This document shows positions 20,182 to 21,724 of a stretch of 64,000 nucleotides of DNA, one piece after another. Where the stretch lies: assembly GCA_035715365.1 (NCBI GenBank), contig DASTLB010000022.1, positions 80,242 through 144,241 of the forward strand, written 5' to 3'. Position 1 is the first letter of the stretch, and each line of letters starts with the position of its first letter. The stretch comes from Kofleriaceae bacterium. GTDB taxonomy: Bacteria; Myxococcota_A; Polyangia; Haliangiales; Haliangiaceae. The notes beneath the pieces are model-generated. The model made no database searches, was not told the DNA's origin, and saw only the letters and a list, made by a program, of their open reading frames with translations. The position numbers and the translations under genes were made by a program.

Positions 20182-20874
20182 TCAAGGACAGAGCGGAAAC
20201 TGCGCGCTGCCCGTGCGCGCGACGTTGTCGCCGAGCGCGATCGCCATGTCCTCGAGCACGTGACCGCGCGTGTCGGTGACGCGCAGCGCGTATGGCCCGT
20301 CGCCGAGGCCGGTGTCGTCGACGAAGTAGTTGTAGTCGGCGCGCGGCAGGGCCTGGTACGCGCCGCTGCCGTCGCGCGCCTCGAGCTTCGCGATCGGATA
20401 GCGATGGTTGCGGATCTGGATCGCGGTCCAGAACGCGTTCGAGCCGTCCTTGAACTGATAGGAGATCGGACCGTCGACCTCGCACGGCACCGGCAGCCAC
20501 GTGATCGGGACGCGACCGGCGGACAGCGGCGCGATCATCTCGAATGCCTCGCGGCTGAGATCGAGATCGCCCTCGGCACAGCCCGGGCACTGATCGACGA
20601 CGCGGACGACGATGTCACCGGCGGGCCCGCTGACGACGAGGCACGCACCGCACCACGCGGCGTGATCGTAGTCGGCGGCGTTGATCGCGGCGACCATGCG
20701 ATCGGTGCTCGCGTCGAAGCTGCAGTTGCCCGTGCCGTCGGCGTCGTAGTAGGTCGCCTCGCCGGACTTCTCGGGCTGCGGCGCGGTGCACGAGCCGCCC
20801 GCTGGCGGCGGAGGCGCTTCGTCCGAGCTGCAGCCACTCGCGACGCACACGAGCAGCAGCCAGGCACTCCGCAT
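20182..20874 (-). CDS. expansin-like protein (DPBB + CBM63, EXLX1/YoaJ-like) lipoprotein
   Basis: Lipobox LLLVCVASGC. ATYYDADGTGNCSF...CGAC double-psi beta-barrel signature. Aromatic-rich C-terminal domain. Confidence 0.7.
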   Translation of the reverse strand: MRSAWLLLVCVASGCSSDEAPPPPAGGSCTAPQPEKSGEATYYDADGTGNCSFDASTDRMVAAINAADYDHAAWCGACLVVSGPAGDIVVRVVDQCPGCAEGDLDLSREAFEMIAPLSAGRVPITWLPVPCEVDGPISYQFKDGSNAFWTAIQIRNHRYPIAKLEARDGSGAYQALPRADYNYFVDDTGLGDGPYALRVTDTRGHVLEDMAIALGDNVARTGSAQFPLCP

Positions 20875-20911
20875 ACCGACAGGATCGTCGGCCGCGGCGG
20901 GCCAGATCAAG

Positions 20912-21304
20912 CTACTTCGTGCCGGGGCACGGCGGCTTCGGCGGCGCCTTGATCAGGATCGTTTCGCCCTTGACCGTGGCGACCAGCCCGGCGAGCTCGA
21001 CCGCGTCGAAGAACAGCTGCGTCGCCTGCTTCACCGTGAACTTCGCCGGCGAGATCACGCGCAGCTTCGTCGGATGCGCCGCGAGCGACTCGTCGAAGAC
21101 GATCGTCTTGCACGTGAAGCCCGACAGCCAGACCGCGAGCACCTCGAGCGTCGCGCCCGGCGCGAACTGCACGCTGACCTGCTCGTGCGCCGCGAGCTTC
21201 TTGCACGTGTACAGCGTGTCGTCGACACCGTCCGGGTCCGCACCCGCGAGCTTCGAGGACAGGATGATCGACACGACCGCGAGCGAGATCAGCGTGCGCC
21301 ACAT
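20912..21304 (-). CDS. secreted hypothetical protein
   Basis: 130 aa with a signal peptide (MWRTLISLAVVSIILSSKLAGA). Sits between the GG-leader peptide P4 and the expansin gene on the same strand. Confidence 0.5.
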   Translation of the reverse strand: MWRTLISLAVVSIILSSKLAGADPDGVDDTLYTCKKLAAHEQVSVQFAPGATLEVLAVWLSGFTCKTIVFDESLAAHPTKLRVISPAKFTVKQATQLFFDAVELAGLVATVKGETILIKAPPKPPCPGTK

Positions 21305-21380
21305 GCGCTTGCCCTGACACGGGCGATCGCCGCACGCTCGCGGCTGCGCGAAACCTCCTCGAGGTCTCGACGCGCCCTGC

Positions 21381-21602
21381 TCAGTAGCCGCTGATCTGGA
21401 CGCTGGTCTCGACGCTGTCGCGCGGCGGCGGCGGCGCGGCAGGCGCGGCGGCCACGGCGGTCGCCGACGCGGCGGCGGGCTGGCAGCAGCACGGCATCGC
21501 GATCGCGGTCGCGGTCGCGGTCGCCTTCTTGTGACAGCCGCCGACGACGGCCGTCAGATCCAGGGACGAGATGCTGGAGAATGGCTGGGTGGTGGTGAGC
21601 AT
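21381..21602 (-). CDS. double-glycine-leader precursor peptide P4 (…SISSLDLTAVVGG + Cys/Ala/Thr/Pro-rich core)
   Basis: The leader aligns with P1-P3 (I-12, D-8, L-7, V-4, GG). GC3 is high throughout. Core is CHKKATATATAIAMPCCCQPAAASATAVAAAPAAPPPP. There is no strong RBS, so the start could be the upstream GTG at 21665. Confidence 0.5.
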   Translation of the reverse strand: MLTTTQPFSSISSLDLTAVVGGCHKKATATATAIAMPCCCQPAAASATAVAAAPAAPPPPRDSVETSVQISGY

Positions 21603-21724
21603 GCGGTCGGCAAGTGCAGCGCATGTGCCACGCGCTGCCGCCTTTCGATCCGCGCAGTTGAGCACGCGACGCGCGCCGCGAACGTCTCCTGCGGGATGCA
21701 GCTAAGGTACTCTCCGGGCTGCAT

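Follow-up and report, generated by a model that had tools for sequence, protein, structure and literature searches.

The exporters that act on double-glycine signals are widespread in Gram-negative bacteria, with no role reported for them other than the export of proteins bearing such signals, and class II microcins are defined by small size, a double-glycine signal, an exporter and an adjacent gene for a small membrane immunity protein (PMC12219008). For myxobacteria, the literature yielded nothing specific on double-glycine peptides or C39 exporters, nor on expansins. The present analysis concerns P4, a gene for a double-glycine-leader peptide in a 64-kb stretch of contig DASTLB010000022.1 from a Kofleriaceae metagenome-assembled genome (MAG); we refer to this whole stretch as the window. 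P4 (21381..21602, minus strand) encodes a 73-amino-acid (aa) precursor and heads a co-directional array with two further genes on the same strand, namely that for a 130-aa protein with a Sec signal and a single secretin-N0-like domain (20912..21304) and that for a 230-aa expansin of the EXLX1/YoaJ type with a lipoprotein signal (20182..20874, with an alternative start at 20910). This is the layout that an earlier note, made from the DNA sequence alone, had described, and it stands.

Since the window has about 70% G+C and long spurious open reading frames (ORFs) occur in every frame, G+C content by codon position was used to sort genes from artifacts. The values at the first, second and third positions (the last being GC3) are 0.58/0.68/0.93 for P4, 0.60/0.45/0.97 for the 130-aa ORF and 0.67/0.54/0.89 for the expansin; the ORFs overlapping these genes in other frames show shifted patterns, as for non-coding frames. 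A second, independent gene caller returned the same 73-, 130- and 230-aa products from this organism's sequence on a Logan contig, and both P4 (VFQ53_08130) and the 130-aa protein (VFQ53_08125) have been deposited at NCBI as hypothetical proteins of a Kofleriaceae MAG. The coding signature and the independent gene calls rule out that P4 is not a gene, and confirm that all three genes are real and lie on one strand at these coordinates, with short gaps between them, 76 nucleotides (nt) from P4 to the second gene and 37 nt from there to the expansin gene. The earlier note had named, as a check, whether the codon usage of P4 might instead match that of an antisense lipoprotein gene; GC3 fits P4's own frame, and the lipoprotein gene, of 87 aa, begins at 21723 and lies clear of P4. 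A longer version of P4, a 94-aa ORF starting at GTG, was also rejected, as GC3 falls in the extension and the orthologues begin at the aligned Met.

The P4 leader comprises residues 1-22 (about 21537-21602), and the predicted mature peptide begins at Cys23. Before the double glycine (GG), the residues F-15, I-12, D-8, L-7 and V-4 reproduce the classical double-glycine pattern, so that P4 has the form of a small precursor (within 150 aa) with a GG leader and hydrophobics at -4, -7, -12 and -15. It does not match the strict enterobacterial leader pattern with Arg, and of the features in the class II microcin definition it has the size and the signal and lacks the adjacent exporter (PMC12219008). 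The leader carries a net charge of about -2, its short hydrophobic stretch is broken by Asp and Ser, and position -2 is always Gly. Because it is acidic and has neither a positive N-region nor a hydrophobic core, P4 is ruled out as a protein with a Sec or lipoprotein signal, and a test for a Sec-type signal with a hydrophobic core of at least 7 residues and a lipobox before the Cys was likewise negative. An AlphaFold2 model built on a 103-sequence alignment reached a predicted local distance difference test (pLDDT) score of 63, with a lone helix at residues 13-17 of the leader and a disordered core.

Homologues of P4 emerge only with sensitive searches. A word-indexed search brought up one remote homologue (35% identity), HMMER run as a full profile search over 1.84 billion representative proteins returned 12 at E<1e-3, and a profile built from 26 sequences of the family found 122 clusters. 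The members are 54-138 aa long and all annotated as "hypothetical," none has a Pfam domain, and every one with a named taxon is assigned to Kofleriaceae or "Deltaproteobacteria." For P4 itself, no curated family in Pfam or NCBIfam matched at E up to 1. Judged by sequence comparison, this is a real, conserved and previously undescribed family that comprises 122 or more clusters of soil-metagenome sequences and has no Pfam or NCBIfam model. Together with the leader pattern, this conservation bears out the earlier view of P4 as a real double-glycine-leader peptide gene.

An alignment of 103 members provides the residue statistics of the family. With a median of 25 aa and a net charge of -1.9, the leader conforms to M-x-N-T-T ... 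P-x-(F/L)-E-S-I-D-x-x-x-L-x-x-V-x-G-G. GG-C is invariant, L at -7 and V at -4 are invariant or nearly so, and M1, I11, L16, V19, T66 and V68 are nearly invariant. The invariant Cys is usually followed by [GH]-K-[KHR], the first six residues of the core having a net charge of +2, and then by a Cys cluster of variable size (1-6 Cys in the core, median 4). Beyond it, a spacer of variable length, in which Pro makes up 20%, Ala 16% and Gln 10%, leads to the conserved sequence [DP]-x-[VI]-x-T-[NS]-V-[SQ]-[IV]-x-G-[YFQ], at or near the C-terminus. The N-terminal M-x-N-T-T, whose Thr at alignment position 5 is present in 90 of 93 members, forms an N-x-T sequon and is an unusual start among double-glycine leaders; the window P4 has LTTT there.

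In form, the closest described systems are the class II microcins and bacteriocins (colicin V/MccV, PF10439), with which P4 shares the small precursor, the acidic GG-ending leader with its hydrophobic positions, a small Cys-containing core and small membrane-associated genes next door. The colicin V leader, MRTLTLNELDSVSGG, resembles that of P4, its LNELDSVSGG comparing with SLDLTAVVGG in P4 and SLTDLSAVTGG in a related locus (L009). Unlike these systems, P4 has no peptidase-ABC exporter or fusion protein nearby and its family is recognized by no curated model; the family leader is longer, begins with a conserved M-x-N-T-T and is always followed by Cys; the core, rich in Pro, Ala and Gln, is disordered and carries a conserved C-terminal T-x-V motif; and the locus occupies a conserved chromosomal position in many species.

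This position was established by comparing related loci. A pattern scan of a genome collection with a six-sequence P4 alignment gave 35 pattern matches, of which tblastn confirmed none; because P4 itself thus retrieved no genome loci, the better conserved 80-aa Cys protein encoded beside it was used as the locus probe. The scan with this protein yielded 33 loci from different species of Kofleriaceae or Haliangiales, to which loci found through individual P4-family members were added. The comparison covers about 35 loci (labeled L001, L004 and so on), and the genes of all of them were mapped with HMMER.

The explanation that we favor, at about an even chance, is that P4 is exported and loses its leader to a distant peptidase-ABC exporter, that it remains unmodified save for possible disulfides, and that its gene heads a set of interchangeable envelope genes. 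A C39-domain ABC exporter encoded elsewhere would recognize the acidic leader of ~22 aa and cleave after Gly22 during export. The resulting product, of about 51 aa, would start with Cys-His-Lys-Lys and a small Cys cluster that probably forms disulfides, continue through a disordered Pro/Ala-rich middle and end in the conserved T-S-V-Q-I-S-G-Y; it would need no locally encoded modification and might have an antibacterial or signaling activity. The genes downstream of P4 would be interchangeable cargo rather than obligate partners. As the gaps are short and P4 always comes first, P4 is probably co-transcribed with the genes for the N0-domain protein and the expansin lipoprotein. A terminator scan found no terminator-like sites between the three genes on the minus strand.

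Several observations weigh against this explanation. Neither the 64-kb window nor ~450 kb of related loci encodes a C39-ABC exporter or its fusion protein, the only protein with both Walker A and LSGGQ motifs in either set being MlaF, and described class II microcins and bacteriocins usually adjoin their exporter. No curated family scores above threshold against the P4 family; the most recurrent Pfam match, PF10439 (class II bacteriocin with double-glycine leader), in itself a point in favor of the explanation, is found in 13 of 103 members and stays below threshold with a best E of 0.011, bactofencin_A and bact_IIb_cerein each give weak matches to two members, and the remaining recurrent Pfam and NCBIfam matches are Pro-rich low complexity. 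The invariant Cys after GG, the M-x-N-T-T start and the C-terminal motif are unexplained by simple export, and the locus, single-copy and held at one position in many species, differs from typical strain-variable bacteriocin loci. As for the operon, promoter and terminator scans of the locus gave no consistent signal. The same was true of RNA folding of the spacer between P4 and the 130-aa gene and of the region upstream of P4 (z about -1.8), and of a search for a hairpin after the P4 stop among 23 loci.

The window holds three other ORFs with double-glycine leaders, all on the minus strand, small and high in GC3: 5220-5465 (leader SIEPDALATVTGG), 25103-25285 (leader IIDLATLAHVTGG) and 47197-47406 (leader ISLETLVTVTGG), the last of which carries PFPGPRNP-like repeats. 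Their cores are unrelated and mostly Pro-rich with 0-2 Cys, and none adjoins an exporter. One type of leader on unrelated cores is the picture that a generic export signal would give, which favors the explanation above. Myxobacterial genomes can thus hold several "orphan" double-glycine precursors far from any exporter, which extends the recent picture of microcin-like peptides as widespread outside Enterobacteria.

A more specific form of this explanation, and a sub-case of it rather than a true alternative, takes P4 as a class II microcin-like toxin for which one or both of the small genes diverging from it provide immunity, these being kept as orphans where P4 is absent. The first of them encodes the 87-aa lipoprotein (21723..21986, plus strand), which has a Gly/Ala-rich hydrophobic body and a lipobox (VTG-C), is 40% identical to its counterpart in L001 and is a variable constituent, present in about 12 of the about 35 loci. 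The second encodes the 80-aa Cys protein (21983..22225, plus strand), which has a hydrophobic N-terminal segment and four conserved Cys and is divergent from P4 whenever P4 is present. Neither has a Pfam or NCBIfam match. The size, the signal and these membrane-associated neighbors suit the published definition (PMC12219008), and the P4 core evolves fast, at about 35-48% identity as against 57-62% for neighboring genes. The 80-aa gene is kept in all 33 genomes, including those without P4, as orphaned immunity genes might be; the 87-aa gene, too, also occurs in loci without P4. Against this, the exporter is not adjacent, and the 80-aa protein, with homologues at 43-68% identity, is more conserved than would be expected of an immunity gene tracking a fast-evolving toxin. 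On balance, we hold a toxin with local immunity to be unlikely. The 80-aa protein, the constant neighbor at this site, is marked by the motifs LPK[HR]VECG, EP[FL]GFY and D[VI]GFAY in addition to its four invariant Cys.

The composition of the core raises a true alternative, in which P4 is the precursor of a peptide made on the ribosome and modified after translation (RiPP) and enzymes encoded at a distance, such as a cyclodehydratase or a lanthionine synthetase, act on dispersed precursors with a shared leader, in the manner of the prochlorosins. The Cys clusters, with their median of four Cys, and the dispersal of four ORFs with similar double-glycine leaders and unrelated cores over 64 kb would suit such a system, and weak single matches to the Mersacidin and GRASP_targ models point the same way. 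The earlier note had read the Cys, Ser and Thr residues of the core as typical of modified peptides and had called P4 CCC-containing. Neither feature survives comparison with the family. The Thr-rich stretch is encoded by a hexanucleotide tandem repeat at 21497..21524 (Tandem Repeats Finder: period 6, 4.7 copies, 95% matches) as an (Ala-Thr)n run, "ATATATAIAM"; since it is repeat-encoded and the alignment columns of residues 27-37 (ATATATAIAMP) are filled in fewer than half of the 103 members, it is a lineage-specific insertion private to this genome. The CCC run is not conserved, the orthologues in L015 and L036 having a Cys only directly after GG and no Cys/Ser/Thr cluster beyond it, and no conserved Cys/Ser/Thr pattern was found in the family: only the first Cys is invariant.

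That note had also observed that no modification enzyme lies nearby, and in this it was right: neither such an enzyme nor a recognition-element protein is encoded near P4 in the window, nor in the about 35 related loci, where the neighbors of P4 are genes for Mla transport, GreA, MFS, POT and pirin proteins. Long leaders of the Nif11 or nitrile-hydratase type serve trans-acting modification enzymes, as against the short one of P4 (about 22-25 aa), and the other double-glycine peptides of the window are Pro-rich and poor in Cys. Modification in trans is therefore distinctly improbable. As a further observation on the core, a degenerate (GCG)n repeat of about 19 copies at 21422-21478 encodes its Ala/Pro-rich part, and the P4 spacer seems to change in evolution through the gain and loss of repeats.

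The second gene of the array had been described simply as encoding a secreted protein of 130 aa. The Sec signal stands, and profiles of its homologues refine the rest. The match of the protein itself to PF21305 (GspD N0) falls below the cutoff (E=0.004), whereas all five of five homologues match at E=3e-6 to 2e-4, one of them, with 27.5 bits, passing the cutoff of 27. A PDB profile search with ten N0-like domains gave six matches, all of them GspD N0 and all non-significant (E=0.13-0.41). The homologues, drawn from neighboring loci, are mostly longer and comprise a signal peptide, one or two N0-like domains, a Pro/Ala-rich linker and a C-terminal domain; in two of them the C-terminal half matches the NCBIfam model GspC_delta (NF041515, deltaproteobacterial GspC) at 171 and 151 bits, above the cutoff of 150, and PDZ models also match. 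The window protein ends right after the conserved Cys that closes the N0-like domain, as does a two-domain protein in L006. It thus appears, by homology, to be a natural or derived N0-only form, a truncated relative of an N0-PDZ GspC-like family. Unlike GspC, members of this family have a cleavable signal and lack the membrane anchor and the HR domain, the window protein contains no domain beyond the N0-like one, and no type II secretion gene cluster surrounds it. We know of no described architecture in which an N0 domain is fused to a GspC-type PDZ domain. A word-indexed search with the 130-aa protein recovered only the protein itself, and its single-sequence AlphaFold2 model was too poor for use (pLDDT 43).

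The assignment of the third gene to the EXLX1/YoaJ-type expansin lipoproteins holds in full. The NCBIfam model NF041144 (expansin_EXLX1) matches over profile positions 1-194 of 194 with 248.8 bits against a cutoff of 100 (E=2.5e-74), Pfam DPBB_1 matches at E=6e-10, and solved expansins align across residues 32-228, covering both domains (9ms5 at E=3e-60; YoaJ/EXLX1 of Bacillus subtilis, 2bh0, at E=3.6e-32). The window protein thus shares with EXLX1 the double-psi beta-barrel and the CBM63-like domain from end to end. Three segments align with those of solved expansins: GDLDLS with GDVDLG and NHLDLF; FWTAIQ (within FWTAIQIRNH) with WWCGIQ and YWFSMQ, its first aromatic being Phe instead of Trp; and DYNYF with EYNYF and YYNYF. 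Presumably these correspond to the functional Asp and the aromatic surface of EXLX1 (D82, W125/W126, Y157). In place of the plain secretory signal of EXLX1, the N-terminus, MRSAWLLLVCVASG followed by Cys, holds a lipobox (VASG-C) of the standard lipoprotein type, and the orthologues in L001 and L005 carry lipoboxes as well. A further difference from EXLX1 is that the window gene follows those for a double-glycine peptide and an N0-domain protein. In this soil bacterium, the substrate of such a wall-loosening protein may be a plant, fungal or bacterial wall. The analysis flags both an apparently undescribed architecture, in which one or more secretin-N0 domains and a PDZ domain of the GspC type are joined, and a bacterial expansin in lipoprotein form.

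Seen across the related loci, one fixed chromosomal site in Kofleriaceae carries a changing set of genes for envelope and secreted proteins, a variable islet. The backbone runs from the Mla transporter genes through an optional prepilin-like gene and a 228-aa lipoprotein gene to the islet, and continues with the 80-aa Cys protein, GreA and an MFS transporter, followed by a POT transporter and a pirin gene. The islet itself holds the expansin, N0 or N0-PDZ, P4 and 87-aa lipoprotein genes in any combination, with occasional additions such as an M48 peptidase (L025, 1905-2774) or a 339-aa secreted protein (L010). Wherever it occurs, P4 is the first gene beside the divergent promoter region, and it heads three alternative next genes, for N0 or N0-PDZ proteins, the 339-aa secreted protein or the expansin, at gaps of 5 to about 94 nt. 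An N0-PDZ homologue lies directly downstream of P4 in L015, L034, L036, L038 and L041. Because L034 and L041 hold the full array of P4, N0-PDZ and expansin, the window arrangement is either an ancestral or a recurrent one, though with a shortened gene in the middle.

Whether P4 orthologues adjoin expansin orthologues had been named as a check, and in many related genomes they do. Where both genes are present, P4 is upstream of and co-directional with the expansin in 11 of 14 loci; in the other three genomes (L009, L012 and L024) the expansin lies on the opposite strand, after the 80-aa gene, from which P4 still diverges. Of the 27 loci collected independently of P4, which are not phylogenetically independent, nine hold the expansin and P4, four only the expansin, six only P4 and eight neither. 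P4 is thus found in 9/13 loci with the expansin vs 6/14 without, an association that is not significant (odds ratio 3, Fisher p=0.25); five of the eight loci ascertained through P4 contain an expansin. No expansin or N0 partner and no co-directional downstream gene accompanies P4 in L004, L016, L021 and L026, and N0-PDZ occurs without P4 in L014 and L039. The link between P4 and the expansin is therefore facultative, and a special partnership of the two is not supported. Since the evidence does not bear out the idea of a modified peptide that works together with an expansin, the practical value of the locus is modest for now.

The same comparisons bear on the possibility that P4 is an envelope tether, held by its Cys/Lys end through a lipid or a disulfide, with the Pro-rich spacer spanning the periplasm and the C-terminal strand docking into the PDZ or N0 domain of the GspC-like protein or onto the expansin. 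The invariant Cys, preceded by two small residues and followed by basic ones, recalls that of a lipobox, the spacer and the conserved T-x-V-x-I-x-G-Y/F motif have a suitable layout, PDZ-bearing homologues directly follow P4 in the five loci listed above, and P4 is found in a larger share of the loci with an expansin. Set against this are the acidic leader, whose lack of a positive N-region and hydrophobic core makes Sec/Lsp processing unlikely; the many members that extend past the C-terminal motif and so often offer no free C-terminus; the non-significance of the expansin association; the loci in which P4 stands alone or N0-PDZ stands without P4; and the entire lack of a PDZ domain in the window N0 protein. 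We accordingly give a tether slightly less credence still than modification in trans. A bolder variant, in which each P4 peptide is dedicated to working with the envelope proteins encoded after it, anchored by Cys and docking by the C-terminal strand onto N0/PDZ or expansin as a peptide-guided wall-loosening device, strikes us as very improbable; were it true, such a device would serve Kofleriaceae against prey or against plant or fungal walls. Least probable of all is that P4 is not exported and acts as a small cytoplasmic or regulatory protein, or as a translated upstream ORF controlling the downstream genes: its constant first place before variable genes and the lack of a nearby exporter would fit, but the leader, GG-C and the C-terminal motif are conserved at the protein level over 122 clusters at 30-60% identity, and in four loci P4 has no co-directional gene downstream to control.

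Two backbone genes conserved in most related loci flank the islet in the window. One, on the plus strand at 19489..20175, encodes the 228-aa lipoprotein-like protein and marks the islet edge; the other, on the minus strand at 22362..22871 and beyond the 80-aa Cys protein, encodes a GreA/GreB-like protein whose homologue in L004 matches PF01272 (GreA_GreB). Between an Mla auxiliary lipoprotein gene and the 228-aa lipoprotein gene, the window also encodes the 194-aa prepilin-like protein (18811-19395, plus strand; GVTFLELVVVIALIAVIAAIAIP). This gene, too, is variable, since it is found in only a few of the related loci (L013 and L017, with two copies in L034).

Some islets elsewhere hold unrelated genes. 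In L010, the 339-aa signal-peptide protein (5900-6919, minus strand), an unrelated one, lies between the P4 orthologue and the expansin, so that the middle slot of the array accepts different secreted-protein genes. In L020 (12646-15276), a distant P4-like peptide (SLVAVTGG-CHKGPQQ) directly follows an M48-type metallopeptidase gene, whose upstream reading frame contains a group II intron-type reverse transcriptase; the islet M48 peptidase of L025, a locus without P4, is homologous to this metallopeptidase. Farther out in the window, a 241-aa lipoprotein-like ORF (14493-15218, minus strand) has a C-type-lectin-like end (GEPNNDNNEDCAELK, WNDGNCGDGQRFVCRR) and is conserved in L032 and L034.

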